The notes under the pieces: model-generated | Database searches by the model: none | What the model was told of the DNA's origin: nothing | What the model saw: the letters and a program-made list of their open reading frames with translations, nothing else | Shown here: positions 14,013 to 49,800 of the stretch, in pieces | How positions within the stretch are numbered: the first letter of the stretch is position 1 | Layout of the letters: the number at the start of each line of letters is the position of its first letter | Program-made: the position numbers and the translations under genes | IMG/VR virus record: IMGVR_UViG_3300037312_000757 | Length of the DNA: 64,000 nucleotides | Reading direction: 5' to 3' (one strand) | Source of the DNA: a virus | Taxonomy: Duplodnaviria; Heunggongvirae; Uroviricota; Caudoviricetes

Positions 14013-14372
14013 GTGGTAGTTAACTATCACTATTTGAATAACGTGATCATCGTACAGAACACAATAGCTGAATTGAGCCCAAAAGCTTCCGCACAGGACG
14101 TGGGCTCTGTAGTATGCGCAGTAGTACACAATTCACCAGTCATGATGATGCGGTCTTATCAAGACACCATCATTGCGCAACGGGAACGAATCATAAAGAA
14201 GATGTTCCCATTCGTGGAATGGGCTAGTGACAATTGTGAAAGTGGTTGGTGGTTTGAATGTGACATGGAACTGAAGTGGACACGCATCAAGTTACATTTC
14301 TCATCAAACGCAGATGCCGTGAAATACAAGTTGAGTGGTCCCGATGCTGTCAGTTTTAACATGACGGTGTGA
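14013..14372 (+). CDS. FKLxW-family small protein
   Basis: EWASDNC...FSSNADAVKYKL. Confidence 0.65.
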   Translation: MVVNYHYLNNVIIVQNTIAELSPKASAQDVGSVVCAVVHNSPVMMMRSYQDTIIAQRERIIKKMFPFVEWASDNCESGWWFECDMELKWTRIKLHFSSNADAVKYKLSGPDAVSFNMTV

Positions 14373-14734
14373 TAATGGACTTGCTTGCTAACATTCACTT
14401 GTTTGAGGACAAGAACTTCAAGAACAGATTGTCATCTCGTTACTGGATTGACACTTTGCTCGATGAAATATCATCAGAAGAGTTGGCTGAAGCTTTTCAC
14501 TCCACCTGTCCACATATTGTAGAAGTCAAGCATCATATGAAGATAGCTGACATATACAGTATCTGGAGTGAGCACCATGTTCACAAAGCCTGGTGTAAAG
14601 ACCACACTAGTGGCTTCTGGATGGATGCAAATTTCCCTGCTCGACTAGGCATTCATCCAATGCGCATCTTCAGCTATGTGTTTGGCTTTCAAGAGATAGC
14701 TGACGCAGTAATGTTTCGACTCGCTTTTTGCTAA
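14369..14734 (+). CDS. FKLxW-family small protein
   Basis: AWCKDH...FQEIADAVMFRLAF. Confidence 0.72.
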   Translation: MIMDLLANIHLFEDKNFKNRLSSRYWIDTLLDEISSEELAEAFHSTCPHIVEVKHHMKIADIYSIWSEHHVHKAWCKDHTSGFWMDANFPARLGIHPMRIFSYVFGFQEIADAVMFRLAFC

Positions 14735-16372: not shown

Positions 16373-16702
16373 ATGATTCATCGTTTTCCGCAATATGGCC
16401 ACGCATTGTTGATCACTGGCGAAAACAAGCGTGAGCAAGGTAACTTCACTGAACGAGCACTTGCAGAGCTGGTATTGCATGAACGAGAATCTCATGTCAT
16501 CCGTCTACGTGTTTGGAAGTGCCGTTACATTACAGTCAAGGAAACTTTGCTGTATCAGCACTTTCAAACCGAATATCCGAGCATCTACGCTGTTTACGAG
16601 AAGCAGTATGACGGATATAACTTCAACGCATTCACAGCCGAATACGTCATCATTCCTGACGTCACTGAGGCGATCCACTTCAAGCTGAAATACTTGTGCT
16701 AG
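16373..16702 (+). CDS. FKLxW-family small protein
   Basis: EAIHFKLKY. Confidence 0.72.
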   Translation: MIHRFPQYGHALLITGENKREQGNFTERALAELVLHERESHVIRLRVWKCRYITVKETLLYQHFQTEYPSIYAVYEKQYDGYNFNAFTAEYVIIPDVTEAIHFKLKYLC

Positions 16703-18590: not shown

Positions 18591-18917
18591 ATGCGGAGAC
18601 TTTGTTCTGCAGTTGGTGCCATGATTCGCAAGTCATCGAGCAAAGTGAGCAGTTTCTTTGCTCGTTTGTATTTCCGGCACTCGGTTTCGATCAAGTACGA
18701 CAACGAGAGTTACACTGAAGTCTACGACTGGGTGCAGGAAAAAGTTGGTAAGCGGTCTGTCTGGGTGAACTACAACACTGAGACTTGCATTGATGCGAAT
18801 GGCGTAATCGTGCAAATGATTACTGACAATCGTCTGGAGTTCCGCTTCAGAAAGGTCACGGACGCGATTATGTTCAAGCTGACGTTCGTAGACATCCTGT
18901 TTACAAAAACACCGTAG
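18591..18917 (+). CDS. FKLxW-family small protein
   Basis: DWVQEKVG...DAIMFKLTF. Confidence 0.75.
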   Translation: MRRLCSAVGAMIRKSSSKVSSFFARLYFRHSVSIKYDNESYTEVYDWVQEKVGKRSVWVNYNTETCIDANGVIVQMITDNRLEFRFRKVTDAIMFKLTFVDILFTKTP

Positions 18918-19620: not shown

Positions 19621-20310
19621 TTAGTCGTTCGACGGAGCACGCACACCGATGATCGACAGCAGGTTCACGAACAGGTTCATGAAGTCGAGATACAGGGACA
19701 GCGCACCATTGACTTGCTGGAAGTTGAGTTCGTCAACGTTGTCAGCGTAGTGCAGACCATCGCGGATCTTCTGCGCATCGTAGGCCGTGATCGCCAGGAA
19801 CAGCAGCACCGTGATGATCGAAACGATCAGCGTGAGCGTGGAGCTTTGCACCAAGAAAATGTTCACCAGGCTGACGATGATGATCGCGATCAGACCAACA
19901 AACAAGTATTGACTGAGGCCCGTGATATCACGTTTCGTGAAGTAGCCGTATGCCGACATCGTCAGGAACAGTACAGCCGCCGAGAAGAACGCGAGGAAGA
20001 TCGATGCCGTTGTGTATGCCGCGAATACCCCTGCGAGCAACACGCCCCAGACCGTTGCAAACGCGCCGAACAGTCCGAGCAAGTAGCCCTTCGATGCGCC
20101 CTTTCGCGCCGTCGAGATTGCCGCTGTCAGGCACAGGCTGATGACGAACAGAACGATGAATGCAACGACGTTCGTTGCCATAGCCAGCAGCGGCTTGCTG
20201 CCTTGAACCAGGAACGCGATCAGGCCAGTGTACAACAGTGCGCCGAAGACGTAGTTGTACACCTTGACCATCGCCGAGTTCAGCGACGAAGCCGAGAGAC
20301 TGATACCCAT
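19621..20310 (-). CDS. yccA: Bax inhibitor-1/YccA family membrane protein
   Basis: Seven TM helices, YGY.TKRD, AYDAQKI, ALSLYLDF.NLF; AAGGAG SD. Confidence 0.9.
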   Translation of the reverse strand: MGISLSASSLNSAMVKVYNYVFGALLYTGLIAFLVQGSKPLLAMATNVVAFIVLFVISLCLTAAISTARKGASKGYLLGLFGAFATVWGVLLAGVFAAYTTASIFLAFFSAAVLFLTMSAYGYFTKRDITGLSQYLFVGLIAIIIVSLVNIFLVQSSTLTLIVSIITVLLFLAITAYDAQKIRDGLHYADNVDELNFQQVNGALSLYLDFMNLFVNLLSIIGVRAPSND

Positions 20311-20351
20311 TAGTTTGTTTCTCCTTAAATGGTTTAAAGTAACAACACTGC

Positions 20352-20382
20352 CAATTCTGTGTTCACTTGAACTGGCAGTCAA
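20352..20382 (-). promoter_or_regulatory. Sigma70-type promoter TTGACT-17-CAGAAT with a GTTCAAGTGAAC palindrome in the spacer
   Basis: Near-identical spacer at 47901-47912; variants at 7807 and 41315. Confidence 0.6.
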
Positions 20383-20393
20383 GCACTTTTTAC

Positions 20394-21143
20394 TTAGGAA
20401 CGTTCGCAAATAGCAGAATTTGCACCATGTTCGAAAACTTCAACTGATTTCAGTCGTACCGTCGGGTTCAGTTGCTGGTCACGCGTGTCATCAAGCAGCT
20501 TAGTCACGTAGTCAAACACAAGCTCAGCAAAACGTTCGCAACCCACGCCTGGCACGACGCGCAAGTCAATGGAATGCGCTGTATCAGGATTTTCGGCCAT
20601 AGCCTGCCAGAATGAAAGCATCGGGTCGTCTTCTGCGATTACCATTGTGTGGTCGAACATGTATTCGAGCCATTGCTTGACTGGCTTCAGCCCACCAAAA
20701 TCCATGACCCAGTTACGTTCATCAAGTGTGTCACATTCAAAGATAAACTTCACACCGATTGAATAGCCATGCACCTTGGAGCAGTGTGAGTGAGTCGAAC
20801 GCCATTGACGGAAACAGCAGCTCAGGCCCCTATCGTTACCGAACGTCTTGGTTGACAGGAACTTCTTGGATGGCTTTTCGATGAAATAGCCTTCATTAAT
20901 GAGCGAGCCTACATGTTGTTTGGCTTCATCATCATTCATACCGCTTACGTCTACGTAGAATACACGCCGGTCGTCTTTGTTGACAGCTTTTGCCATTTGA
21001 TCTCGCATTTCGGCGACGTCTTTGTTCAAGGCTGCCTTAATTTCTTCAGCCGCATCAATACCCAGCGATGCTGCCAATTTCACTGATTCGTCGTCAATGC
21101 CAACAGTGAAAGAACCATGCTCAGTGTTATGTTTGATATCCAA
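20394..21143 (-). CDS. queD: 6-carboxy-5,6,7,8-tetrahydropterin synthase QueD with ~90-aa N-terminal extension
   Basis: SHC..VHGYS, NWVMDFGGLK, FDHT, GCERFAE, VEVFEH. Confidence 0.88.
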   Translation of the reverse strand: MDIKHNTEHGSFTVGIDDESVKLAASLGIDAAEEIKAALNKDVAEMRDQMAKAVNKDDRRVFYVDVSGMNDDEAKQHVGSLINEGYFIEKPSKKFLSTKTFGNDRGLSCCFRQWRSTHSHCSKVHGYSIGVKFIFECDTLDERNWVMDFGGLKPVKQWLEYMFDHTMVIAEDDPMLSFWQAMAENPDTAHSIDLRVVPGVGCERFAELVFDYVTKLLDDTRDQQLNPTVRLKSVEVFEHGANSAICERS

Positions 21144-21169
21144 TTTATTACCTTCTTGTTATGGTTGAA

Positions 21170-21212
21170 GGCCCCAGAATTTTTATAGAGGGATGACGCC
21201 ACCTGTCCTCTT
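21170..21212 (-). promoter_or_regulatory. preQ1-I-like riboswitch candidate in the queD leader
   Basis: AGAGG-loop15-CCUCU-AUAAAAA-UUCUG; loop CAGG can pair with UCUG. Confidence 0.55.
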
Positions 21213-21295
21213 TGCGTTTCCGCGACTTACTAAATAACAGTGATTATACTTATGTCGCGTTTGGCAACCAATAATCATATTTACGGAGACAAAGA

Positions 21296-21805
21296 ATGAG
21301 TACAGGTATTTTTAAGACAACAGCGCTGCGCGTGATGGGTTCAGCAGATGTATGGACAGCACAGAATCCAATCCTCGAAAACGGCCAGATTGGCGTCGAG
21401 ATCGATTCAAACAAGGCTAAGATCGGTGACGGTCAAACAGCATGGAACGCGCTTGCATATATCGGTGCTTCAACAAGTGCAGTCACATCTGTTGCTGGTA
21501 AAACAGGCGCCGTTGCTCTGTCAGTCGTAGACATTTTGGGTGCCGCCCCAATCGCAAGCCCAGTATTCACTGGCACCGTTTCAGTTCCAACAGCGCCAGC
21601 TGGTGATAATTCAACAAAGGCAGCATCAACAGCGTTTGTTGCATCAGCTATCGCTGGTATTCCTGGCTATGTTTTGCCAGCAGCAACAACAGGTACAATC
21701 GGTGGTGTTAAGAAGCTTGCCGCAATCGCTGACCTGACAGCAGCACCAACACAAGATGACTTCAACAAGCTGCTGGCAGCAATGCGCGCCGCTGGTCTGA
21801 TGTAA
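21296..21805 (+). CDS. Head/tail fibre or decoration protein
   Basis: NPIL..GQIGVE.D..K.KIGDG..W..L, VTSVAGKTGAV, APTQDDFNKLLAAMR head-fibre tail; TAAATA late promoter. Confidence 0.8.
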   Translation: MSTGIFKTTALRVMGSADVWTAQNPILENGQIGVEIDSNKAKIGDGQTAWNALAYIGASTSAVTSVAGKTGAVALSVVDILGAAPIASPVFTGTVSVPTAPAGDNSTKAASTAFVASAIAGIPGYVLPAATTGTIGGVKKLAAIADLTAAPTQDDFNKLLAAMRAAGLM

Positions 21806-23409: not shown

Positions 23410-23892
23410 TTATGAAGTTTTTGTATCATTTGGTATATTTGTGATATAGTCTCGAAGCGCAAGATTCACCAGTTCATCTATGGTAACATCATGGTGAGCG
23501 GCAGCAATCTCAAGTCGCTCACGCTCATCGTCTTCAAGATCGAATGTGACATAATTGAGCAAGCCCACATCAACGTCCTTACCATCGCGCCGTTGCTGCA
23601 CCATTTGCAGAGCACGATCAAGCGTCGGGATGATATCATGCCAGTCGATGGCCCGATTTCCGTCCTTCAACACTTCTTCGATAAAGTCTGTGTGAATCCA
23701 GTACAGCACATCATCATAGAAATCACTCCAGACTGAGATCTGCCGTATATCACCAGATTTGCTATCAAACACAAGTTCAACGTTTGGTGTTATTTCAACT
23801 TCATGCGAGAACTGTCCGTATTTCACGTTGTAACACGGACGAATCTCGAAGATGTCATATCCAAACCTAGCCAAGAACTCGTGAAACTTCAT
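23410..23892 (-). CDS. Hypothetical protein (paralog of 22797-23291)
   Basis: C-terminal RHH-like AAAHHDVTIDELVNLAL. Confidence 0.65.
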   Translation of the reverse strand: MKFHEFLARFGYDIFEIRPCYNVKYGQFSHEVEITPNVELVFDSKSGDIRQISVWSDFYDDVLYWIHTDFIEEVLKDGNRAIDWHDIIPTLDRALQMVQQRRDGKDVDVGLLNYVTFDLEDDERERLEIAAAHHDVTIDELVNLALRDYITNIPNDTKTS

Positions 23893-24926
23893 TATGACTT
23901 CCCGAAGACTTCATTGATTTGCTGGGTGACGCGGACAAATGTAGTTCGCTTGCTTAGTTCTTTCAAAGTTGGAGCACCCGTGTACGTGCAAGCGCTTCTG
24001 ATACCGCCTAGAATGCCCTGGACGGTGCTTGCAACAGGACCCCGATATGGGACTTGAACTGTCTTGCCTTCGCTGGCACGGTACTCCGCAACACCACCAG
24101 CATACTTGTTCATTGCGGTGTCAGAGCTCATGCCATAAAACTGCTTGAACATCTCACCGTTCTTCATGACAATATCACCAGCTGATTCGTCATGGCCGGC
24201 CAACATACCACCAAGCATTACATAATCAGCACCAGCACCGAATGCCTTTGCGAGATCACCAGGTACTGTGCAGCCACCGTCAGCACAGATCAGGCCCTTC
24301 ACTCCGTGCGCTGCGTCTGCGCATTCGATGATTGCTGACAGTTGTGGATAGCCGACACCAGTCATCTTGCGTGTCGTGCAAACAGAACCAGGACCAATAC
24401 CAACCTTGACAATATCAGCGCCGGAGAGGATTAGTTGTTCGGCCATTTCACCAGTTACAACGTTACCAGCCATGATCAGTAGATCCGGGTAGAACTTGCG
24501 AAGTTTTTCAATGAATTGAACGAAAGTTTCTGAGTAGCCGTTCGCCACATCGACACAGACTTTCGATATGGGTTGCTGATGGTACACATCAACAAACTTC
24601 TTATAGTCAGCATCACCAATCCCCATGCTATAGAAGCTGAAGTTTTGTGCTGACGTTTGAGAAAAGTGATGAATGAGATCTGCTTCAGAGAAATGCTTCT
24701 GCAGAGCAGTCATCATTTGATGATCCTTCAGAGCTTCGAACATCTCGAAGGTGCCAGTCGTGTCCATATTCGCAGCAATGATTGGCACGCCGTTCCACGT
24801 TTGCTTTGCGTGAGGGAATTTAAATGAACGAGTGATGTCGACTTCTTTTCGTGAGGAAAGAGTTGATCGTTTTGGACGGATTAAGACGTCCTTGAAATCA
24901 AGTTTTACTTCTGTCTCGATGCGCAT
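23892..24926 (-). CDS. guaC: GMP reductase
   Basis: [45 protein letters not shown]. Confidence 0.96.
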
Positions 24927-26162: not shown

Positions 26163-26474
26163 TTATTTTTCTTCCACTGCTGTAATTTGTTCGTAAAACA
26201 TCAACATGAACATAAAGGCTTCGCTCTCCGTTTCGAAGCCAATACCGTCACTTTTCAACTCTGGGTGATACGTGATTCTCGACGTCACCACATTTGACGT
26301 TGCTCGCCATTCCCTAACGGAATCATACAAACACCTTTTCTTTGGCAAGTAATTGACGAAATAATCCCGGTACCCTTCCACACGTCCCGGCTGGTGTCGT
26401 TCATCCCATGTCACCCACCAACTGAAACGACTATTCTTCGTCCCAGATGGCATTTGGTATTGCCTCAGCTTCAC
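26163..26474 (-). CDS. FKLxW-family small protein
   Basis: GFETESEAFMFMLMF. Confidence 0.7.
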   Translation of the reverse strand: MKLRQYQMPSGTKNSRFSWWVTWDERHQPGRVEGYRDYFVNYLPKKRCLYDSVREWRATSNVVTSRITYHPELKSDGIGFETESEAFMFMLMFYEQITAVEEK

Positions 26475-26731
26475 TGGAACACCTCGTGATGACAGAAAGT
26501 CATGTAGAAGTGAATTGCTTCTATCTCTTCTCGGAAGCCAAAACCAGATAGCCCACCAACTCTAGACTTCAGCAGACAATTATAGGAATGAACTCTGATG
26601 AACTCCTGCATTTCGTTAATGGCTTTAGAGACACGTTTGTCCTTAGCGCCAAGTTCCGAAATGAAGTTGTTTGTTTCCCAAGTGACCCACCACTTGAAAA
26701 ACATTTCGTGTTCATCCTTTGTTATTTTCAT
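26471..26731 (-). CDS. FKLxW-family small protein
   Basis: GFREEIEAIHFYMTF; shares WWVTW with the previous gene. Confidence 0.7.
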   Translation of the reverse strand: MKITKDEHEMFFKWWVTWETNNFISELGAKDKRVSKAINEMQEFIRVHSYNCLLKSRVGGLSGFGFREEIEAIHFYMTFCHHEVFQ

Positions 26732-27033
26732 TTTGCTAACGGTATATCGAGATGAGTCAATCTGAACAGAACCGCATCTGTTTCATTGTCAAACCGCAAT
26801 ACAGCATGGTGTCCAGTTTCTTTGCTGAAATCAACAGTCCAACCCATTATACCAACATGTTCAGTAATCCAAGCTTTGATTTCAGCTTCAGCTCGAGCTT
26901 GATTATATTTTGCCCAATTGATCGAATGACGGCTAATGGCCAGTGTAGTTATTTCACCCCGAAGATGAGCAGTAGTGGGCCATTTTAATGGCTTGACATT
27001 AGAAATGTCGAATGCGTAAGTCACAGCATCCAC
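26728..27033 (-). CDS. FKLxW-family small protein
   Basis: WITEHVG...DAVLFRLT. Confidence 0.75.
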   Translation of the reverse strand: MDAVTYAFDISNVKPLKWPTTAHLRGEITTLAISRHSINWAKYNQARAEAEIKAWITEHVGIMGWTVDFSKETGHHAVLRFDNETDAVLFRLTHLDIPLAK

Positions 27034-27293
27034 TTCAATTTAAAATACGTCGCCAATTTATCATCTTTAATGAGCAAATATGCACACACTCGACTAAGAT
27101 GAGACCATTCAAAATGAACAAGCCAGGTATCATCGCCTTCTGATGTAGCAAGTTCTTCGGTCAACCACTTTCTGACCTTGCCTGCCCGCAAGATATTCTC
27201 AGCTGATTTTAGAGATTTGTATTGATTCCATTCAACATCAGGAACAATGTGTGAAATCTCAAACAACCAACCATCTTGTTCTTGTTCTACCAT
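27021..27293 (-). CDS. FKLxW-family small protein
   Basis: WLTEE...LATYFKLKW. Confidence 0.75.
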   Translation of the reverse strand: MVEQEQDGWLFEISHIVPDVEWNQYKSLKSAENILRAGKVRKWLTEELATSEGDDTWLVHFEWSHLSRVCAYLLIKDDKLATYFKLKWML

Positions 27294-27559
27294 GTCAACA
27301 TGAATTCGAACGCATCATTATAACTGGTAAATCCAATCCAAGTGCCATCCGCATAAACCCGAACTTCACCTTCCATGTTCGCCTGGACCCACAACCAGAA
27401 ATCGTGCTTGAAACTTTCGTGCTCCCATTCCAAGTCAGCATTCACGAAAAATTGACATTTGCATGGCCTGCCGAAGTCGACGAAACGTTCGGGAGCCAGC
27501 AACACATCTTTGGAAATCTCAGAATTTTTCGCAATAAAAGCTTGGCGTTCGTAAATCAT
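27287..27559 (-). CDS. FKLxW-family small protein
   Basis: GGAG SD at MIYERQ; WVQAN...DAFEFMLTW. Confidence 0.72.
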   Translation of the reverse strand: MIYERQAFIAKNSEISKDVLLAPERFVDFGRPCKCQFFVNADLEWEHESFKHDFWLWVQANMEGEVRVYADGTWIGFTSYNDAFEFMLTW

Positions 27560-27650
27560 GTTTTCTCCAGAGATCATCGTGAAGCAGAAATGGCACGAAT
27601 GCCAAATTGCTTCGTTAATTATAACAAATTTGTAAAATGGCAACTAGACG

Positions 27651-27923
27651 TCAGAACGAGTCTTTCACCAGGGCAAATTCAACTGCAATGGTGTCATCCT
27701 CGATTTCTATTTCGTAGATGAAGCACCAGTTTCTGAATTTACCAACATTCGTCTTAATCGTCATATTCCAACCGTCACCTTCTACGGTGTCGATATTTGG
27801 ACTAAACGAATAATCTGCTCTATTGGTTGTCCTTGCGACTAACCAATCAATTACTTTGGGCTTGAATGAAACGATATTGTCATCATCCATGCCCTTTGTG
27901 ATACAAAAAACATTCACAACCAA
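27651..27923 (-). CDS. FKLxW-family small protein
   Basis: IEDDTIAVEFAL. Confidence 0.72.
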   Translation of the reverse strand: MVVNVFCITKGMDDDNIVSFKPKVIDWLVARTTNRADYSFSPNIDTVEGDGWNMTIKTNVGKFRNWCFIYEIEIEDDTIAVEFALVKDSF

Positions 27924-28210
27924 TCCCGTATGATAAGTGCGAGCGCTACAGCTAACACTTCATCATCGATCTCGAATTCGAGATGCATCATGGTGTTTTC
28001 AAAGTCGAATCGGTAATACATGTTCCAGCCTTTACCTGGTAGCTTGTCCAAGTAAAATTCATCCTCAATACCCTTAGACTCCATTTCACCAACACATGGC
28101 CCAATGTTTTCGGTGAGCCAGCTGATTGACTTGTTGATGAATCGGTGGTGTCCTACAGGAACATCATTTACTTTGAACGTTGCCATTGGTGACTGTCCGC
28201 TTAATTTCAT
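27914..28210 (-). CDS. FKLxW-family small protein
   Basis: WLTENIG, GKGW, IDDEVLAVALAL. Confidence 0.75.
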   Translation of the reverse strand: MKLSGQSPMATFKVNDVPVGHHRFINKSISWLTENIGPCVGEMESKGIEDEFYLDKLPGKGWNMYYRFDFENTMMHLEFEIDDEVLAVALALIIRDWL

Positions 28211-28442
28211 CTAGCCAACGTAACTTGAAGGCTAATGCTTCTGTTTCATTCCACAGTTCGACTTTGATGTAGCGATCTTTCCAGTCGCCACTATACACTA
28301 AACCACTTTGCCAAGCGTACTTTTTAATTTTTGTTTTGGGATCAACTTCAATCACCGACGGGCCGATGTTCGCGTGGAGCCACCGCTCAACTTCGACGGG
28401 CAGGTCACGTACGGTGAAGGGGATGAAGAATGTTGTTGTCAT
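28164..28442 (-). CDS. FKLxW-family small protein
   Basis: WLHANIG...EALAFKLRW. Confidence 0.75.
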   Translation of the reverse strand: MTTTFFIPFTVRDLPVEVERWLHANIGPSVIEVDPKTKIKKYAWQSGLVYSGDWKDRYIKVELWNETEALAFKLRWLDEIKRTVTNGNVQSK

Positions 28443-28495
28443 GTGCAGTTGCCAAAGTGGGTTGCTATTCTACTAGCGAGAATTGGCAACCGCAA

Positions 28496-28753
28496 TTAAG
28501 GCATTGACAACTTAAACGCTACTGCTGATGTGGCGTCTTTAAAGAGGAAGATGTTGAAGAAGCTCAGATATTCTTCTGGATCTGACGTTTGCATTGCTAA
28601 GGATTCAAAGTCCACAGTATTGAAGACATCAACCAGAACTTTATGCTCAAACCCATGCTGCCGAGCGATCCTAACCATATCAGAAATCTTGAAGGGTGCA
28701 GGCAATAGTCTACGTCGTTCTGGATCAGCATCAATCCATTGTCTGAGCTTCAT
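28496..28753 (-). CDS. FKLxW-family small protein
   Basis: FKDATSAVAFKL. Confidence 0.72.
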   Translation of the reverse strand: MKLRQWIDADPERRRLLPAPFKISDMVRIARQHGFEHKVLVDVFNTVDFESLAMQTSDPEEYLSFFNIFLFKDATSAVAFKLSMP

Positions 28754-28754
28754 A

Positions 28755-29039
28755 TCAGTACCAACGCTTCTTCACGTGTTCCTTGAGTTTGTCAAGGTTA
28801 CACATCAGCTTGAACTTGACTGCTTGAACACTGTCGTCGAAGTAAACCATGTCTTGGCAGATGACGAAAGATTCATAGCCGAGGTTTTCTATGCACCAAG
28901 ATACCATACGAGCCACTTTCACACCTTCTGGCATCTTCATGCGTTCGTATTGCTCGCATTTGTCAAGCTCTGCTCGTACCTGGCGTACGGGCATTTTTTG
29001 CTCTTTAAACAGCTGGTTGAAATGTTCGCGCACGTTCAT
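28755..29039 (-). CDS. FKLxW-family small protein
   Basis: WCIENLG...FDDSVQAVKFKL. Confidence 0.75.
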   Translation of the reverse strand: MNVREHFNQLFKEQKMPVRQVRAELDKCEQYERMKMPEGVKVARMVSWCIENLGYESFVICQDMVYFDDSVQAVKFKLMCNLDKLKEHVKKRWY

Positions 29040-29082
29040 CTTATTATTCTTATTGGCGTTTTGAAGCGGATATTTTAGCGCT

Positions 29083-29322
29083 TTATCCGTCGGCAGCAAA
29101 GAGCTCGTTGCCAATTTCCACGACGGTGCAAGCAAAACCCTTGTCATGCTGGAAGTCGCGGAACACTACATCGTTCTGTTGATATTCACGAACTTGCACC
29201 CAATGCCGAGCCACCGTGAAAATGCACAGTTCACAGTAATGCTCGACGATGAACGCCTTGCAATCTTGCTTTGTCATGTCGAAGTAGTTGCTGTCTATTG
29301 CAAGGCAGTTTAACACCAACAT
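29083..29322 (-). CDS. Hypothetical protein within the array (no FKLxW motif)
   Basis: 79 aa ORF filling a gap in the array. Confidence 0.5.
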   Translation of the reverse strand: MLVLNCLAIDSNYFDMTKQDCKAFIVEHYCELCIFTVARHWVQVREYQQNDVVFRDFQHDKGFACTVVEIGNELFAADG

Positions 29323-29329
29323 GCAATCA

Positions 29330-29689
29330 TTATCCGTTTTTTCTGCGTTCTTCTAGATACTCAGGGAAGAACAGCTTCCACTGAACCGCAAGGGTTGTGT
29401 CTGTGAAAAGGATGTATGAACCACCTTCATGATCAGACGACGTTTCGATCACATAGTCGTAGGTGGAGACTTTTTGAGAATTCATCCAGTTGTATAGATA
29501 CTCAAGATCATCGTAGCTGTATTCTGGTACAGCGTCAGGAAGCACGTTTCCCGGCGCTCTGAAACGTGCCATGACATAACCTGCTTGCTCGGCAGCTTTT
29601 TGAAATTCAGGGCTGTAGGCGAGGCCAAATTGATCAATGGCGACCTGCCACCATCTGAGCGCATCTATTTTATTCATAACCATATGCAA
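29330..29689 (-). CDS. FKLxW-family small protein
   Basis: FTDTTLAVQWKLF. Confidence 0.72.
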   Translation of the reverse strand: MHMVMNKIDALRWWQVAIDQFGLAYSPEFQKAAEQAGYVMARFRAPGNVLPDAVPEYSYDDLEYLYNWMNSQKVSTYDYVIETSSDHEGGSYILFTDTTLAVQWKLFFPEYLEERRKNG

Positions 29690-29957
29690 GCTTAAACGTC
29701 ATTGCGTCATTTGAGTGGGTGAAGAAGATCCGCTTGTCGCCCTTGGCATTAGCGTACTCATCACTCTCCCAGTAATCATCTTCACCAACGTTGTCTTCGA
29801 GCCAGCACAGCATGTCGAAGTGCTTTTCGGGTGGCCAACCATCGAAGTTGATCATGACGAACGGATACTTCATCGACATCAACTCGCTATCAATTTCGTC
29901 CGAATTGATCATCAAGCCAACGGCGGCAAGGACTCCCACGATTGCTCCCAATGACAA
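29670..29957 (-). CDS. FKLxW-family protein with N-terminal hydrophobic helix
   Basis: WLEDNVG...DAMTFKLAY. Confidence 0.75.
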   Translation of the reverse strand: MSLGAIVGVLAAVGLMINSDEIDSELMSMKYPFVMINFDGWPPEKHFDMLCWLEDNVGEDDYWESDEYANAKGDKRIFFTHSNDAMTFKLAYGYE

Positions 29958-35224: not shown

Positions 35225-35802
35225 CCTGGTTTTCTAAATTCAGTGGGTTCTGCCTGGGTTTCATCGCGCTCCTCTAGAGTCCACGAGCTATCAGAAAGCG
35301 TCTCAACCTCATTGAATTCTTCGTGAGGAATTGGCTCTATGACTGGAGTCGAGTTGATGCCAATTGTAGCATCGTCTTTATGATTGGCGTTCATATTAGT
35401 AACCATATCTTTCAATACTTGGTTTTCTTCTCTGATAAGGGAGATTTCGTATTGTAGTTTGGCTACTTGTTCTTCGAGGGGATCGATTTCCTCTTCGATG
35501 TTCATCATGAAGCCGTGTTCGAGCAGGAGGATGTTGGCGAATACGTACAGTCTTGTGGTGAAGAGTTCTTTGGTGACGTTATTGTGATCGATGTGTTGTC
35601 CATCGTGTGTGGTGCCACCGAATACTTTGGCAGCTAGATCCAGGACATTGTCTTTTGCGATGGGTGGGAGGACTAGGCCGCTTTTCTTTACTTGGTTTTC
35701 GAGCATATTGATGAGGAACTTGGTGATCTTCTCCTCATAATTTTCATCGCTCGCGTCGCGGTTACCAAGCACCCGCATTAGGGTGTTGATTATTGATTTC
35801 AT
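35212..35802 (-). CDS. Hypothetical coiled-coil protein
   Basis: GGAG SD; 196 aa. Confidence 0.65.
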   Translation of the reverse strand: MKSIINTLMRVLGNRDASDENYEEKITKFLINMLENQVKKSGLVLPPIAKDNVLDLAAKVFGGTTHDGQHIDHNNVTKELFTTRLYVFANILLLEHGFMMNIEEEIDPLEEQVAKLQYEISLIREENQVLKDMVTNMNANHKDDATIGINSTPVIEPIPHEEFNEVETLSDSSWTLEERDETQAEPTEFRKPGWLT

Positions 35803-35985
35803 TGATCTTTCTCCGGGATGGATTTCTTTTTGATGCCGCGGATACTTGATCTGTAATCATGTGATAGCAGCGATCACATGAATTTATCATCAAAGTGGTG
35901 AATGATACCTTGCTTTGCTGAGGAAGCGACGTTTGTCACAGAAGCTTGGTGTGCCTGTGTCTGCCATCAAGATCACAATCGAGGC

Positions 35986-36171
35986 TCAAAGCAGCCCGAA
36001 TCCGTGAGTAGCTAGTATGCAGAAAATCAGGATCAAGAGGCCGATGTTGAAGGGGACGGCTGGTACATATCGTGTCGTGTAATAGATTAGCGCCGAACAC
36101 GTGATAATGCCAGCCGCAAAGCATGCAAGGCCGAAGAGAAGAGTTGTTTGCAGATATGGGGAGACGAACAT
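35986..36171 (-). CDS. Small two-TM membrane protein
   Basis: Two hydrophobic segments. Confidence 0.55.
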   Translation of the reverse strand: MFVSPYLQTTLLFGLACFAAGIITCSALIYYTTRYVPAVPFNIGLLILIFCILATHGFGLL

Positions 36172-36172
36172 C

Positions 36173-36406
36173 TTACATCACCGTATGTGTACGTGCTCGC
36201 CAGCAATCACCATTATCTGGATTCATGAGTGCGTTGAAGTAGCAGTCTGGATCGTAGTACCACAATTCGTCCCAATAAAGTCTTGACACTTCTGGTATAA
36301 ACGGTTCACCGTCTTCCGTGAACCGTTTCACATCGTACCAACCTGGTATTGCGGGATCGTAAGTGCAGGCAAACCACTCGGTCAAGCTTTCACCCAACCC
36401 TAGCAT
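36173..36406 (-). CDS. Hypothetical protein
   Basis: AGGAG SD; TEWF....P..PG.Y motif. Confidence 0.65.
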   Translation of the reverse strand: MLGLGESLTEWFACTYDPAIPGWYDVKRFTEDGEPFIPEVSRLYWDELWYYDPDCYFNALMNPDNGDCWRARTHTVM

Positions 36407-36467
36407 TCGGGGCTCCTTACTATCTAACGAGCCTACCTATTATAGCGGAACGCTAAGGTGAATGCGG

Positions 36468-36788
36468 TTAGGGTCGATTTAGATAAGTCACGATCGCCAC
36501 AAGAACGTCTTCAGCTTTCGGATCTTTGAGTGTGCTGAGTATGCGACAGGAAGCTGTTAAAAGAGCCTTGGCGCTGTTTACGTGCTCTTTTAGATGCGGG
36601 TAGTCAGTTGCCCCTGCCAGGTGCAGGAAGGCGCTCTGATCAAGTTTGGCAGGCATTCCTCGAAGTAGGTTAGCATGCAAGTTAGTTGGATCTTCGAGTT
36701 TACGCCATTCATATAGCTCTTTGTCTCTTGCTACGAGAAGCATGCACAGTTCTTCTTTTGACAACTCGGGGTAATCAATATCAGACAT
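36468..36788 (-). CDS. Hypothetical protein
   Basis: LHANLLRG.PAKL; coupled to the upstream gene. Confidence 0.65.
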   Translation of the reverse strand: MSDIDYPELSKEELCMLLVARDKELYEWRKLEDPTNLHANLLRGMPAKLDQSAFLHLAGATDYPHLKEHVNSAKALLTASCRILSTLKDPKAEDVLVAIVTYLNRP

Positions 36789-37269
36789 GAACGGCCTCTA
36801 CGATAGGAGTCACTTCTGTATTCGTTACGTTGATTGTACACGTAAACGTCTCTGCGAGCTCATCTTCTTCAATAGGCAACCATGGTCTGCGATGACACAG
36901 CGTGAGTGTACTGGTGCCCGGTTGACCGGCCCAGAAACGCCACAGAACATGACCTCCGCCACCGACAAGCAATTCGCCCTTGTCAGTGTGCGTCCTGATT
37001 GGAGTGTGTTCGGGATCTTTCATCTGCATCAGAATTGATGCATTGTTTTCAGCTAGTTCCCACAAAAAGCCCGTGCTAGGGTTGTCTGGGAGAGTGAGAA
37101 GAATACCGGAGTCGACCGGTACGGTGATCGTCATGTTGTTCTGCTCTGCACCCAGCATGAAGTGCGTGCAGTCTTTGTGCAAACAGCGTCTTACTTTCTT
37201 CTTCTTCATACAGCCTAGAAAGTAACAAAGAATGGTAAATGCAATCACATAAAGTGGTAGGAATGACAT
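36781..37269 (-). CDS. Chagasin-family (I42) cysteine protease inhibitor, membrane-anchored
   Basis: NPSTGFLW, VGGGG, RRPW loops; N-terminal TM. Confidence 0.8.
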   Translation of the reverse strand: MSFLPLYVIAFTILCYFLGCMKKKKVRRCLHKDCTHFMLGAEQNNMTITVPVDSGILLTLPDNPSTGFLWELAENNASILMQMKDPEHTPIRTHTDKGELLVGGGGHVLWRFWAGQPGTSTLTLCHRRPWLPIEEDELAETFTCTINVTNTEVTPIVEAVHV

Positions 37270-37312
37270 TTTAGTCTCATGAATGATAGCCGCATAAAGC
37301 AGCTATCATTAT

Positions 37313-37573
37313 TTACGACTTGACGATCTGCTCAATTGGCTTCCGCCAGATTAGCACCATGGCGGTAGCGAACCAAATAAACATAATCGCAGCAACTACC
37401 ATCTTGTGATCGACAATGAATTCTGCTACCGGAGATCCATACTGCAGACGTACATGAACGGCTAGACTCAGCAGAACCGTCATGCAACCGACACCTGCAA
37501 TTGCCAGTAAAGTTGCTGCCACACAACGAACTTCCTTGCAAGCAGCCAGTAATGTTGTTTTGAACTTGGCCAT
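37313..37573 (-). CDS. Small two-TM membrane protein
   Basis: GGAGG SD before MAKFK. Confidence 0.6.
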   Translation of the reverse strand: MAKFKTTLLAACKEVRCVAATLLAIAGVGCMTVLLSLAVHVRLQYGSPVAEFIVDHKMVVAAIMFIWFATAMVLIWRKPIEQIVKS

Positions 37574-37631
37574 CCACGCCTCCTGTGTTAGGTGTGCAAT
37601 TATAGCAAGAAGGATGGCAAAAAAGTAAGAG

Positions 37632-37907
37632 TTACGCGAACGTAAGGTGGAACTCGATGGCGGCTGCGTGGGACTTGAAGCAGAATTCGACGATCGCATC
37701 AAAACTTGGATCATCAAAACAGGTCAAGCGAACAAAAGCTTCGTTTTTCCCCATGAAAATGATGCCTCGCTGGTGATATACGTCGTTGTCATATCGTTCT
37801 TCTAGCCAGCGGATCTCATCGTCAAACATCATGAAGGAATTGAACGGTGAAGTCGTTTGGACCACGTACCATTCACCGTCCCGATCGAAGTGAAAAGCGT
37901 TACTCAT
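37632..37907 (-). CDS. FKLxW-family small protein (dispersed copy)
   Basis: WLEE...FKSHAAAIEFHLTF. Confidence 0.68.
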   Translation of the reverse strand: MSNAFHFDRDGEWYVVQTTSPFNSFMMFDDEIRWLEERYDNDVYHQRGIIFMGKNEAFVRLTCFDDPSFDAIVEFCFKSHAAAIEFHLTFA

Positions 37908-38188
37908 GCAGTCTGCTGGTTATACCATTCAATGAACTTCGCAGCATGCCCGCCCATTGTCCGCGCGTTTCCGCTGACGACGCGCCACCGACCAGTTGAA
38001 GGGAAGAAGTCGACCTTTGGCTTGCCCTTCTCACGGAAGAGAATGCTTTCGCCGTTATTCGTGAACGTGTGCGGGATGCCTGATGCCTTGATCACGTTCA
38101 CGTTGTCGTTCCACCATTCCTGGTGTCGTTCCTTCTTGAGTTCCTTCATGAATCCCAAGTTGGTGGAATCATCGTCAGGGTAGCTCAC
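37904..38188 (-). CDS. Hypothetical protein
   Basis: VDFFPSTGRW motif. Confidence 0.7.
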   Translation of the reverse strand: MSYPDDDSTNLGFMKELKKERHQEWWNDNVNVIKASGIPHTFTNNGESILFREKGKPKVDFFPSTGRWRVVSGNARTMGGHAAKFIEWYNQQTA

Positions 38189-38649
38189 GGTTTGTTATCC
38201 CTCACTCGAACGCGATAGTAACCACTTGGCAACTCTCGCCGATTAATCAAATCATGTATCAACGCGCACACATCTTCAATGAAACACGCTGCTTCTTTCT
38301 TACAGTCGATTTCAACTATGGTCTGCTCGCCTGGATCCAAAGGTCCAGGCCCCAATGAACCTATTTCGTGAATGCTGTCTTGCTTACCACCGTACACGTC
38401 AAACGATTTATACGTGCCATAGACCTTCTGCGCTAACTCCTCCAGATGATCCGTGTACACAAGATGCGTATCGGCGATACCTCTCGTCTTAGACTTGGTA
38501 GTCGAAACGAAAATACGATATTCCCTCGTATCATTCAGCATTGCACGCTCCATGAACTGCGTTGCGGAACGCCTTATTTTACGCTCGTATGGTGAAAAGC
38601 GCAAGCCGTATTCACTTGCGCTTTCTTTTACTCTTTGTATCTGACCCAA
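38185..38649 (-). CDS. Hypothetical protein
   Basis: Overlap-coupled ORF. Confidence 0.6.
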   Translation of the reverse strand: MGQIQRVKESASEYGLRFSPYERKIRRSATQFMERAMLNDTREYRIFVSTTKSKTRGIADTHLVYTDHLEELAQKVYGTYKSFDVYGGKQDSIHEIGSLGPGPLDPGEQTIVEIDCKKEAACFIEDVCALIHDLINRRELPSGYYRVRVRDNKP

Positions 38650-39170
38650 CCAGGTTCACGGAGTGCTATATCAGGACTAATGGTCTGAACCCGTCGTCCG
38701 TCTTTGACGTACATAGCACCAGGCGCTCCTGTAATTTCACACGTTCGTGCTGACATGCTTGCTGCCATGTTAATAGCACCTATGCAAAATTCATCTACAG
38801 AAAATGTTGGATAGACTGTCAATGTGCCGAACTTTTCTTTGATAGTACCGAACTCAGGATACCTTGGCTCAGTCCTCATTTCCTTGAAATTCTTGAAATC
38901 ATTAAATTCAAGGACACGACGTTCAAGCACATTTGACACATTTGAAAAATCAAGTGTCACACAAGCATTGCGACCAGCTAACCAATACTCGTAACTGCTT
39001 TGCACGTAATCAGCATGGCGTTGGATGGCTTCACACATTGAATCAATGATGTTATACCATCCGTCACCGCATGCGATACCCGAATAGAACAAACTAGAAT
39101 TCCGATTGTCCTTCTGCACGAACAGCTTTGGATATCGTGCGTACAGCTGATTCTCCAGATATTCTTTCAT
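38628..39170 (-). CDS. Conserved phage hypothetical protein
   Basis: CGDGWY.II, IKEKFGTL, S..TCE.TG.PG. Confidence 0.75.
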   Translation of the reverse strand: MKEYLENQLYARYPKLFVQKDNRNSSLFYSGIACGDGWYNIIDSMCEAIQRHADYVQSSYEYWLAGRNACVTLDFSNVSNVLERRVLEFNDFKNFKEMRTEPRYPEFGTIKEKFGTLTVYPTFSVDEFCIGAINMAASMSARTCEITGAPGAMYVKDGRRVQTISPDIALREPGWVRYKE

Positions 39171-40063
39171 CGGTACTTCGTCACGAGTCGTTCCAGTTCA
39201 GCAACCAACTTGTCAGCCTTATTGGGCTCAGCTACTGCATTACTGAGGTTGCCGTAATGCTCTTCCAAGCAATTGACAAGCAAGTTCTTCAATGCGTCTT
39301 CGTCTGGGGTGTGGCGCAAAGTGCTTGACACATACAGTCCTTCAAGCTGTCGATGCTTGTCTTCAGCCCACTGATCTAGCTGCGCAAGTGTCCACTCACC
39401 ACGACGAATAGCCTTCAGCTGTTCGCGATTCTGTTCGATGTTGAGGTCACCAGTCATCAAGATCTGTTCGCACTCATCAAGCAGACGCACAACGTGGTAA
39501 GCAAATTTCACGTCAAAGCCGTATGCTTCAATAGAAGCGGCCCGCTTCTCATTCTGAGCATTGGTCTTGTTCTTGATCTTGCTCATCTGAGCATATGCGT
39601 AACCCTTAAACTTGTGCCAGCAACCTTTGTGCAAGAATTCCTTACGTGCATCACGCACCATTTCGCCGATCTTGGTCGAATGCACAACGCAACGACGTGG
39701 TGTGAAGATGCTGTCGATCATGTTCGGGTTGTTTTCCATCAGCAACTGGAAATACTTCACAATGTTGTAGATCGTGATGTCGTATTCTCGACTTGTTTCC
39801 TTGTCGATGATGTGGTGATGCTGATATTGTTCGAATCCTGGTGGCAAATTCTTACCGAAGCCTGGCACATAACCAGCCAAATGCGGGAAGATCATTGTCT
39901 TCGGTGGGATGCAGAAGCCATAAACGTCACGATCGCTGTCGTCATTGCTAACACCATACGATTCCGATCCCATGATCGTTTCATACATGGTGTTGCTGAC
40001 TACAAATTGCGGGGCGTCGCTCAGAAGGTCTTTCTTGCGGAGGGTTTGTACGATGCTTGACAT
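39167..40063 (-). CDS. Pol-beta-superfamily nucleotidyltransferase (YcgL/RlaP-like)
   Basis: GSESYG....SDRD, NPN.I, FKGYA..Q, K.AYH..RL. Confidence 0.85.
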   Translation of the reverse strand: MSSIVQTLRKKDLLSDAPQFVVSNTMYETIMGSESYGVSNDDSDRDVYGFCIPPKTMIFPHLAGYVPGFGKNLPPGFEQYQHHHIIDKETSREYDITIYNIVKYFQLLMENNPNMIDSIFTPRRCVVHSTKIGEMVRDARKEFLHKGCWHKFKGYAYAQMSKIKNKTNAQNEKRAASIEAYGFDVKFAYHVVRLLDECEQILMTGDLNIEQNREQLKAIRRGEWTLAQLDQWAEDKHRQLEGLYVSSTLRHTPDEDALKNLLVNCLEEHYGNLSNAVAEPNKADKLVAELERLVTKYR

Positions 40064-40104
40064 GATGCCTTTCTTATTCTAATTATGTGGCAATTGTATT
40101 ACGA

Positions 40105-40443
40105 TTATCGCTGCGGCACAAGCACCAAATTCAAGCCTTCAACCAGATGCTCGAAGAACTCGTCGTTGATAAGTTTGGTGGTGGCAAACTTGTGCATTTC
40201 GACAATAACTTCTGTGTATTTGTCGATCACTTGGTCCATGAATGCTCGGTCTGCATAGATGTCATCGTGAACAACTATCTGTGCTTTTGTCACAATGTGT
40301 TCAGCCATCTTTGCGTCAAGCCCTTTCGCAATGAGCTTGTCGCGCACCATCAGCATCACAGTGTAATTGGTGCTGTGCATGATGCCGCTCTGCAGCATGT
40401 CATCAAGTTGGTCTAGAATTGCTTTCTTGTAATCGTCGTGCAT
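40105..40443 (-). CDS. Hypothetical protein
   Basis: ORF starting MHDDYK. Confidence 0.6.
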   Translation of the reverse strand: MHDDYKKAILDQLDDMLQSGIMHSTNYTVMLMVRDKLIAKGLDAKMAEHIVTKAQIVVHDDIYADRAFMDQVIDKYTEVIVEMHKFATTKLINDEFFEHLVEGLNLVLVPQR

Positions 40444-40624
40444 GTTTTTTTCCAATGAAAAGAGCTGCCGCCATTTTACAGCGACAGCCCGCACGACGCG
40501 AAATGTTAGTGGAAGATCAACCAGATCACCAACAGCACGATGATCAATGCTCCCGCCATTTCACTTGGTGTCATGAGCGGAGGAGTGCCTTTGTCAACAC
40601 CATATTCGTCTTTGTTGTCCCAGC

Positions 40625-41281
40625 TCATTCTGCTGCCTCGTAAGGATAATTTTCACAAACGCACGTCATCACTTCTTTGGCCGTATCGAACGGGCCTTGG
40701 TCCCAGGTCGTGGCAAATTCTTCGGGCTGCTTGTAGCGATTGTAGCTGCGCCACCTACCACAATACCACTTCTTAGTTCCCGGGTTGTACGCGAACTTGT
40801 ACGAACCCCATTCACTCAGAGTCGATTCGAAGATGCTGAAGATCAACCAACCGTGATAGTCAGGCAGCGGTTTATATAGCGGAACAAGCGTTTCCAGTAC
40901 CTTTGCCGCTTCTTCCACTTGCTGTTCGTTACCACGCGTGAACTTCACACGAAGAGCGTGCTGCTGCGTCTCCGGGAAATATCCCGAGAATTCAATTCCA
41001 TTGCTCGGCGCAACCTGACGCATCGCCAGTATGACTTCTCGATAATGACGATCACCACTTGGACCGGCATCTAGAAGCAATGCCCAGTCAACTTGATCTG
41101 ACGCTTGCATTGCTTCGTACTGCATTTTCCCTTTGCGCTCTTCGACCTTCTTCTGGGTTTCACGGAGAGCGATAATTTGCTTGTTGATCGTTGCCTGCTG
41201 CTCGAATAGCGGCCCCAGCTTTGCCTCGATACTATCGTACTCCGCTTGCAACTGCTCAACCGTCATATCTTCGATCTTCAT
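40625..41281 (-). CDS. Hypothetical protein with N-terminal coiled coil
   Basis: AGGAG SD; promoter TTGATT-17-AATAAT. Confidence 0.7.
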   Translation of the reverse strand: MKIEDMTVEQLQAEYDSIEAKLGPLFEQQATINKQIIALRETQKKVEERKGKMQYEAMQASDQVDWALLLDAGPSGDRHYREVILAMRQVAPSNGIEFSGYFPETQQHALRVKFTRGNEQQVEEAAKVLETLVPLYKPLPDYHGWLIFSIFESTLSEWGSYKFAYNPGTKKWYCGRWRSYNRYKQPEEFATTWDQGPFDTAKEVMTCVCENYPYEAAE

Positions 41282-41393
41282 CAGTCTCTCCTGTTCAATA
41301 TGTAGCCATTATTGGCTCATTTGAACGAATAATCAAGCGAAGAAAAAGCCCCTCGTTGAAGGGGCTTGTATTAGTATATCAGCTACCTACTGC

Positions 41394-41926: not shown

Positions 41927-42003
41927 TGGCGGTCCCTGTGGGATTCGAACCCACGACCCTTGGTTTTGAAGACCAGTGCTCTGACCGCTGGAGCTAAGGG
42001 ACC
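41927..42003 (-). tRNA. tRNA with anticodon UCA (opal suppressor, tRNA-Trp-like)
   Basis: GGTCCCT/AGGGACC acceptor, G73, encoded CCA, GCTC/GAGC D stem, loop CTTCAAA, TTCGAAT T loop, short variable loop. Confidence 0.9.
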
Positions 42004-49065: not shown

Positions 49066-49092
49066 AAAAGGGCCACTTGCGTGGCCCTTTTG
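49066..49092 (-). terminator. Terminator after tmRNA
   Basis: AAAAGGGCCAC-GCAA-GTGGCCCTTTT. Confidence 0.75.
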
Positions 49093-49094
49093 GG

Positions 49095-49531
49095 TGTTTT
49101 CTGTTGCTAGGCATTTCCTGCCCCGGCATCGCTTAATCCCGAAGGATTAAGCAGCCATCGCAAAAACGTTGTCGTTTGCGGTTACTTCTTTTGTGCGCTT
49201 TACGAGCGTCACCTCAACGGATACCTCGTCTAATCTTTATTACCGCCCGTCGAAACCAGGTCGGGCCCATCAGGACAGTCCTCAGAGTACCAACGGGGTA
49301 AGCACTTTACGCCTTATCAGTGCGTCGCTTTGCCCAATTACCCCCAGTGTGAACCAGGGCGCTTGTGAGAGCTACAGCCTGCTTAGTTAGCAAGTGCTCT
49401 ACTAAAACTCTGTCATTCTGCACGCTTATCGCGAATCTGCTTGCATTCAGACCACAAAGACTGTTTTGGTGGACCCGGCGGGAATCGAACCCGCGTCCGA
49501 ACCGTCTATTCCATTAGATGTCAACAGCATC
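49095..49531 (-). ncRNA. ssrA: Circularly permuted (two-piece) tmRNA: acceptor piece ~49531-49467, intervening segment 49466-49269, coding piece from 49268; tag (A)ANDNVFAMAA at 49179-49147
   Basis: GGGCCCG/CGGGUCC-A-CCA stem with G3.U70, GGTTCGATTCC T arm, GGTTTCGACGGG 5' motif, ANDN..AA tag; the CCA end lies upstream of the 5' end. Confidence 0.92.
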
Positions 49532-49538
49532 AAAACAA

Positions 49539-49567
49539 ATGATAACGCAATTAGTTCACCGCGTCAA
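49539..49567 (-). promoter_or_regulatory. tmRNA promoter TTGACG-17-TATCAT
   Basis: Read from the sequence. Confidence 0.7.
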
Positions 49568-49800
49568 GCGCTGTTTGCACCCAGGTGGCTGTTATTCACA
49601 ACACTCCGAGGAAGCGCTTTGAAGACGGCATGGCGATCGTTCTTGACGGCAATGCCTTGAGGTTTGAAGAAGGGAGCCATTGGGTCCTGTCTTGCGTAGG
49701 TGTCTTCCATAGCGTCGACCCATTCGAAGAAACGCTTGCGGTCGTATTCTTCGGGCGTTGTGCAGCCGTGCGCTGCGAGGAAATCTTGCTCATCGTGCAT
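49564..49800 (-). CDS. Hypothetical protein
   Basis: AGGAG SD before MHDEQ. Confidence 0.6.
   Translation of the reverse strand: MHDEQDFLAAHGCTTPEEYDRKRFFEWVDAMEDTYARQDPMAPFFKPQGIAVKNDRHAVFKALPRSVVNNSHLGANSA

Follow-up and report, generated by a model that had tools for sequence, protein, structure and literature searches.

A covarying pseudoknot ahead of phage queD genes, with an atypical copy in a large phage genome, as a candidate translational switch

Introduction

7-Deazaguanine bases protect phage DNA from restriction. Here we ask what kind of RNA, if any, precedes the queD gene in a 64,000-nt stretch of phage DNA (the window, by which we always mean the whole stretch), which is contained in a 523,836-bp IMG/VR virus record with terminal repeats. 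An initial annotation had described a preQ1-I-like riboswitch candidate in the queD leader and suggested that it might sense preQ0 or another deazaguanine and so meter a DNA-modification precursor. This raises two questions: whether the leader contains a conserved RNA structure and, if so, whether that structure is a preQ1-I riboswitch or something else.

The preQ1-I riboswitches (RF00522), of types I to III, are reviewed in PMC11625349 and PMC10622847. Their specificity C adjoins the P1 3' strand on its 5' side and comes after a U in type I or an A in types II and III; the P1 5' strand is capped by a conserved U, or UU in types I and III, that contacts the ligand (PMC11625349). The preQ1-I riboswitches treated in that review repress expression (PMC11625349).

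Results

A single element in a divergent region upstream of queD

On the minus strand, the element reads AGAGG, ACAGGTGGCGTCATC, CCTCT and ATAAAAATTCTGG (positions in Table 1), ending in GGCC at 21173-21170. Its sequence is as first described, with the start coordinate given one base off, and the TTG start of queD at 21143 lies 26 nt past the element end. The genome of 523,836 bp contains the pattern AGAGG..CCTCT.TAAAA a single time. A good Shine-Dalgarno (SD) sequence, AAGAAGG, stands ahead of the queD TTG; the same position is ATG in L001, the one close relative that we found in the collections (a 290-kb IMG/VR contig, with a 523,572-bp contig on record for its protein).

The intergenic region that holds the element is 152 nt long and divergent, its opposite-strand neighbor (21296-21805) encoding a head-fibre-like protein. 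Because the region is divergent, queD begins its own transcription unit and no gene ends there; an intrinsic terminator was found on neither strand of the intergenic region. At its other end, queD overlaps a gene for a BI-1/YccA family membrane protein, which is probably co-transcribed with it and co-expressed under the same leader. The order queD then BI-1 is also present in L001.

In many members of the family described below, TTGAC-N17-TATAAT lies directly upstream of P1. A consensus scan near the queD leader of the window returned no full sigma-70 site, and the possible -10 box is listed in Table 1. The interval between the likely -10 box and P1 is about 25 nt longer in the window copy than in the other family members. 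A small GCG-GAAA-CGC tetraloop hairpin (21214-21224, minus strand) sits in this interval; it is missing from L001 and from other members, whose P1 begins no more than a few bases from the -10 box. We also considered reading CTATAAAAAT as a T4-type late promoter and rejected it: L001 has CTCTAAAAT there, and the bases are part of the conserved L3.

Taken as a whole, the leader folds no better than its shuffled versions (z = -0.75). The stretch is contained in two rhizosphere metagenome DNA runs, one of which may be its source; in the other, the aptamer piece (21158-21641) is present without differences. No RNA run containing the stretch is listed.

Table 1. Features of the queD leader and the genes that follow it, in 5' to 3' order on the minus strand
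Feature	Position	Strand	Basis or remark
Possible -10 box TATAAT of the queD unit	21243..21248	-	Putative; kept in L001
P1 5' strand, AGAGG	21207..21211	-	Partner 21187-21191; columns 20-24/46-50, 98.5% paired, 4 of 5 pairs compensatory
Loop: L1 ACAGGU, P2 5' strand GGC (21200-21198), L2 GUCAUC	21192..21206	-	Invariant C 21192 ends L2
P1 3' strand, CCUCU	21187..21191	-	Alignment test, RNAalifold
L3, AUAAAAAUUCUGG	21174..21186	-	Family consensus nUAUAAAyUCUGC
P2 3' strand, GCC	21170..21172	-	Pseudoknot with G21200 G21199 C21198
Predicted SD-sequestering hairpin, GCCUUC 21172-21167 / GAAGGU 21155-21150, 11-nt loop	21150..21172	-	Minimum-energy fold, -6.7 kcal/mol
Shine-Dalgarno, AAGAAGG	21151..21157	-	Identical in L001; 7 nt before start codon
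queD, QueD-like 6-pyruvoyl-tetrahydropterin synthase fold, 249 aa, TTG start	20394..21143	-	Pfam PTPS, PHROG 2389
BI-1/YccA family membrane protein	19621..20409	-	Pfam Bax1-I 1.1e-45; overlaps queD stop by 16 nt

Phage queD leaders share a covarying pseudoknot

From about 228 IMG/VR loci we took 80, fetched by QueD protein, and examined the 130 nt that precede queD; the motif is present at the same position in 62 of the 80, as 40 distinct sequences. An alignment of 41 sequences (A4) was used to test the P1 columns (20-24/46-50) together with those of a pseudoknot helix, P2 (34-39/64-68). The resulting H-type pseudoknot is paired in 97.9% of cells, against 83.5% after shuffling, and sliding the partners by one to three columns drops the pairing to 33-57%. 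Phage queD leaders do covary: 7 of the 10 pseudoknot pairs show compensatory changes, with 49 cells changed on both sides where 12 were expected.

Both helices contribute to this signal. P1 is 98.5% paired and is also predicted independently by RNAalifold; its variants include AGAGG/CCUCU, GCGG/CCGC, AGCGG/CCGCU, AGUCG/CGACU, AUCGG/CCGAU, AGUGG/CCACU and CCGG/CCGG. P1 and the A-rich tail, which the initial annotation had singled out, are conserved across the family, with compensatory changes in the stem. P2 is 97.2% paired, with compensatory changes in 3 of its 5 pairs (variants GGCG/CGCC, GGCAU/AUGCC, GACGC/GUGUC and GACUU/AAGUC), and joins the GGC.. of the loop to the bases after UCUGC over 3-5 (up to 7) bp. 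The P2 originally proposed was a different one, CAGG/UCUG. That pairing is formed in only 39% of the family cells and has no compensatory change, and in L001 it is broken, CAGG having become CUUU beside an unchanged UCUG; the helix that covaries is GGC(R)(U) with the bases after UCUG.

G.U pairs occur in 11 and 8 sequences at two of the P2 pairs, a frequency which indicates that the constraint acts on the queD sense-strand RNA and not on a DNA palindrome. A DNA palindrome or operator was rejected on the same evidence, as the loop length varies, the pairs covary and G.U appears on the sense strand only. The loop is 15 nt in the window and 14 nt in L001, and both shorter and longer ones are found elsewhere in the family.

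Outside the window and L001, 12 columns of A4 are invariant in the other 39 sequences (G24, C26, U27, C45, C46, A57, U59, C60, U61, G62, C63 and C68). The family RNA is about 45 nt long. Its P1 has 5 bp and encloses a loop in which an invariant C-U is followed by the P2 5' strand and then by UCAUC; beyond the P1 3' strand come a 13-nt L3 and finally the P2 3' strand. Collectively, these data identify the covarying pseudoknot as an uncatalogued RNA family that lies directly ahead of QueD-type genes in many uncultured phages.

The window element is a clear but divergent member

For an assessment of the window copy, we used a covariance model (R1, from alignment A5) of 39 members, from which the window and L001 were left out. 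R1 matched the window at 21168-21213 (minus strand) with 38.5 bits (E 1.4e-11), beyond what chance would give, and matched L001 with 30.2 bits. The earlier suggestion that the queD leader contains a structured RNA of riboswitch-like form is supported. In the 524-kb genome the element is single copy, with nothing else above 12 bits. A weak second match (40857-40912, minus strand; 12 bits, E 0.056), which consists of GCGG..CCGC followed by UAUAUAAAC..CUGC, falls inside an open reading frame (ORF) at 40625-41281 and is probably due to chance.

Of the 12 invariant positions, the window copy retains 10. Among these are C21205 and C21192, each kept in 39/39 of the others, and, in L3, A21180, U21178, C21177, U21176 and G21175. 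The two departures are A21204 in L1, replacing a U found in 39/39 others, and G21174 (UCUGG instead of UCUGC), replacing a C found in 39/39; the latter change is common to L001. P2 is also minimal, with only three base pairs (GGC/GCC) followed by a G21197.G21173 mismatch where the others have a fourth pair; L001 has a P2 of 4 bp. In addition, the P1 loop of the window is predicted to be able to form an inner stem (GGUG/CAUC), which would compete with P2 and hide the invariant C.

L001 matches the window in gene order, and its leader aligns with that of the window base for base. The flanking DNA is only about 70% identical. P1 is unchanged between the two and is therefore uninformative. L001 is the sole independent relative of this subtype. 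The search for relatives of the subtype yielded one viral contig only, and a metagenome scan with the N-terminal domain of the protein found none. A pattern search of metagenome DNA gave three matches, none of them convincing (18.9 and 10.3 bits). The window element is a clear member of the queD-leader family, if an atypical and divergent one.

The element is not recognized as a preQ1-I riboswitch

Against the window, Rfam 15 reported only a tmRNA and a tRNA elsewhere and nothing at the queD leader. Relaxing the threshold to E<=10 on the 301 and 86 bases around the element returned no family, preQ1-I, -II and -III included, so that the preQ1 assignment was not borne out by the Rfam models even on the 86-base search space. 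For RF00522, whose gathering score is 39 bits, 47 candidates were scored across the whole genome and none reached E<=10. Other family members behaved alike, with no Rfam match in 20 of them at the gathering threshold and none in 10 at E<=10, and in the literature that we searched we found no paper on this queD-leader motif.

The element nonetheless resembles preQ1-I. The queD-leader element is likewise an H-type pseudoknot of about 45 nt, with a 5-bp P1 and a P2 formed from the loop and the 3' tail. It has a C before the P1 3' strand (column 45, in 39/39 members; C21192 in the window), preceded as in type I by U in 34/39 members and in the window; an A-rich L3 follows P1, the 3' tail has a conserved C, and the linked gene belongs to the queuosine/7-deazaguanine pathway. 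There are also differences. Instead of the U or UU of preQ1-I, the first loop base is variable (A in 20, U in 10, C in 9) and is followed by an invariant C and then U, the window having A-C-A. The L3 of preQ1-I is short, A-rich and leads directly into the P2 3' strand; here L3 is about twice as long, at 13 nt, and has an A-rich start (UAUAAA; AUAAAAA in the window) but closes with an invariant UCUG(C). In the preQ1-I OFF platform, the SD is covered by the P2 3' strand or the tail, or else a terminator follows; here it is the anti-SD or anti-start strand that the P2 3' strand overlaps, with a predicted ON direction and no terminator found. Finally, unlike preQ1-I, the queD-leader motif is found on phage contigs only, apart from two real matches on short contigs from metagenome-assembled genomes (MAGs). 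We therefore treat the element as one that may work like a preQ1-I-type aptamer, yet do not file it as a member, because of the lack of a model match, the nCU loop start, the long L3 and the opposite wiring.

The P2 3' strand is shared with a predicted helix that occludes the ribosome site

In the window, GCC (21172-21170) serves both as the P2 3' strand and in the GCCUUC/GAAGGU hairpin that is predicted to sequester the SD. L001 keeps this hairpin as GCCUUU/GAAGGU, in which a C-G pair has become U.G. In most other members, the P2 3' strand instead pairs with the start codon and the second codon (for example, UGCCAUUG with CAAUGGCA), such that the window platform hides the SD and the platform of most other members hides the AUG. 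When the platform alone was folded to its minimum energy, all but at most one of the P2 3' bases were paired with SD..AUG+6 in 35 of the 41 sequences (3 of 4 such bases in the window and 4 of 4 in L001), whereas shuffling the 5' part of the platform lowered this pairing to 22%.

As P2 and the occluding helix are mutually exclusive, formation of the knot should expose the ribosome site, which would make this an ON switch. This direction is read from predicted minimum-energy folds computed without pseudoknot energies, and we propose it for the situation in vivo on that footing. It is the reverse of a feedback OFF switch that would "meter" a precursor, since in the predicted folds the P2 3' strand overlaps the anti-SD or anti-start strand. 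ON switches are uncommon for biosynthetic genes. The use of an SD-type platform instead of an AUG-type one fits the remodelled start of queD, described next.

The QueD protein is extended, and its pathway genes are dispersed

The downstream gene had been called queD, and this identification stood: the ORF at 20394-21143 matches Pfam PTPS (1.7e-15, residues 108-247) and the PHROG QueD-like profile (1.1e-38). The protein has a 93-aa N-terminal extension (residues 1-93; 20865-21143, minus strand) that is absent from the 78 other phage QueDs we fetched, whose start codons lie two codons before the start of the QueD core alignment (residue 94 here). Only two protein clusters have such an extension, and no Pfam or PHROG match covers it. 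Its first 53 or so aa form a module (MDIKHNTE...) that is common only to L001 and differs there by many synonymous changes, which indicates that the extension is translated; an insert of about 40 aa (at about 20860-20980) is absent even from L001.

The remaining pathway genes are dispersed. Outside the window, at 35572-41376 in the coordinates of the whole genome (G000:C1), lie genes for a 149-aa PTPS-like protein (phrog_17812), FolE, a phosphoribosyltransferase, a DAO-type FAD oxidoreductase and a QueE-like radical SAM protein; this FolE-to-QueE-like group is about 170 kb from queD. A QueC-like PP-loop protein is encoded at 428411-429022 (G000:C1, also outside the window). None of these genes, at 35-41 kb or at 428 kb, has the leader motif ahead of it. 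The DpdA-like gene that had been reported alongside the element was not recovered: the whole genome has no Pfam TGT candidate, tblastn with the DpdA of phage Iggy gave nothing significant, and Pfam and PHROG scans of the large unassigned window ORFs returned no DpdA. About 2.7 kb from queD, a gene of the IMP dehydrogenase/GMP reductase family is found (23892-24926, minus strand; Pfam 5.9e-75), as it is in L001; this places an enzyme of guanine-nucleotide metabolism close to a gene of the 7-deazaguanine pathway.

Motif-bearing queD genes stand mostly alone

Across the family, queD genes with the motif are mostly solo: of the 64 loci counted as having it, which are the 62 above and two truncated by a contig end, few encode FolE or QueE within 3 kb. 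Those without the motif are mostly found inside folE-queD-PRTase-queE clusters, often beside a second, canonical PTPS paralogue. At one locus (L025, 2047-2093), the gene right after the motif is that of a canonical PTPS of 141 aa, with a QueD-like gene next.

When 185,579 species genomes were scanned for the exact pattern, 18 matches were obtained, about the 17 expected by chance from the length of the pattern and the size of the collection. Only two of the 18 are real (L097 and L104), both on short MAG contigs.

Discussion

We consider it probable, at the level of a working model, that the queD leader is a riboswitch that turns translation ON in response to a ligand resembling guanine or a pterin, and this is our most likely reading of the locus. 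Without ligand, the downstream hairpin would close the SD. A small molecule would stabilize the pseudoknot, probably as the aptamer emerges first in transcription; P2 would then capture the anti-SD strand and queD would be translated. By analogy, the ligand is probably guanine-faced, because the element combines, as preQ1-I does, an A-rich L3 with an invariant C that adjoins the P1 3' strand on its 5' side. It may be a 7-deazaguanine (preQ0, preQ1 or CDG), guanine or the pterin substrate of QueD. The more specific proposal, to which we would give a little less than even weight, is that the family is a new, phage-confined riboswitch class, in which a preQ1-I-like pseudoknot has been rewired to turn queD translation ON with a metabolite that has a guanine-like face, either an intermediate on the way to 7-deazaguanines or the pterin substrate derived from GTP cyclohydrolase I. 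The window subtype, with its UCUGG and 3-bp P2, would then be a further variant with an altered ligand or tuning.

Other explanations have to be weighed against this riboswitch model. The 5' pseudoknot of the phage T4 gene 32 mRNA is a case of protein-mediated translational autoregulation, and the queD leader resembles it as a small pseudoknot at a phage mRNA 5' end that is predicted to control translation of the downstream gene. The T4 structure differs in that it is bound by a protein and not a metabolite, shares no likeness in sequence or loop motif, and has no link to queD. Covariation and invariant loop bases prove a conserved fold and not a small-molecule ligand, and in many members the element lies at the extreme mRNA 5' end, like known phage autoregulatory leaders; the family could therefore be a protein-binding operator, in which QueD or another phage protein binds the pseudoknot and shifts its balance with the hairpin that occludes the SD or start. 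We regard this as unlikely, as the architecture fits that of the smallest metabolite aptamers (an invariant C, a U before it in 34/39 and an A-rich L3; PMC11625349) and, with flanking genes that differ among the motif-bearing phages, no shared partner protein is evident except QueD. A pseudoknot that needs no ligand at all, serving to fix the translation level, as an RNA thermometer, as a standby site or as protection of the 5' end from decay, would be consistent with an aptamer that begins only a few bases from the predicted transcription start in many members. What makes it quite improbable is the combination of 12 invariant positions, of which ten are unpaired, with a strand that two exclusive helices share in 35 of the 41 sequences, which is not easily accounted for unless there is a switching signal; the strict link to QueD-type genes argues, moreover, for a signal specific to the pathway.

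The remaining alternatives concern the window copy and the known class. The family could be a real switch of which the window holds a decaying, non-responsive relic, queD being translated constitutively or at a low level. Two invariant positions are indeed changed, P2 is down to 3 bp and a G.G mismatch, an inner stem competes with it, and the coding start has been remodelled by the 93-aa extension. Yet the copy still scores 38.5 bits with 10 of 12 invariant positions in place, and the C-to-G change is shared with L001, whose flanks are only about 70% identical and which keeps a 4-bp P2; the new SD hairpin, which reuses the P2 3' strand in both, looks rebuilt and not decayed. We find decay distinctly unlikely on these grounds, and the atypical copy may still work. 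A true preQ1-I riboswitch, which would repress queD when preQ1 or preQ0 is abundant, is disfavored, and we hold it to be very improbable. It shares with the element the H-type topology and size, the 5-bp P1, the invariant C and the A-rich L3 (PMC11625349). It is opposed by the failure of RF00522 to match, at E<=10, the window, the genome as a whole or any of 10 family members, by a loop that starts with nCU and not U or UU, by the 13-nt L3 with its invariant UCUGC, and by a P2 3' strand that overlaps the anti-SD and not the SD, with no terminator after the element.

If the RNA does bind a metabolite, as the riboswitch model supposes, it would constitute a riboswitch class apparently carried by phages only. 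The smallest known aptamer fold would gain a relative of the ON type, a 45-nt pseudoknot rewired by moving the strand that is shared with the ribosome-binding site, and the RNA would offer a direct handle on how phages time 7-deazaguanine base synthesis. A phage-confined ON class would amount to a feed-forward or commitment switch for that synthesis, and its ligand could reveal a pathway intermediate that phages monitor. The window copy, in which two invariant bases are altered, P2 is minimal and the SD platform looks rebuilt, is a natural variant that would be useful for questions of structure and function and of shifts in specificity.

Further observations in the window

Beyond the queD locus, the window contains a permuted tmRNA (two-piece, alphaproteobacterial-type; 121 and 96 bits) and a tRNA, at 49089-49571 and 41930-42003, respectively, both on the minus strand. 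It also holds many small ORFs of about 90-130 aa, on both strands (14013-14734, 16373-16702, 18591-18917 and 26163-29957), whose products have a similar C-terminal motif, D/E-A-x-x-F-K-L-x-W/F/Y, as in DAVMFRLAFC, DAIMFKLTFV, DAVLFRLTHL, EALAFKLRWL and DAMTFKLAYGYE. These look like a large family of paralogous small proteins, which is also present in L001.
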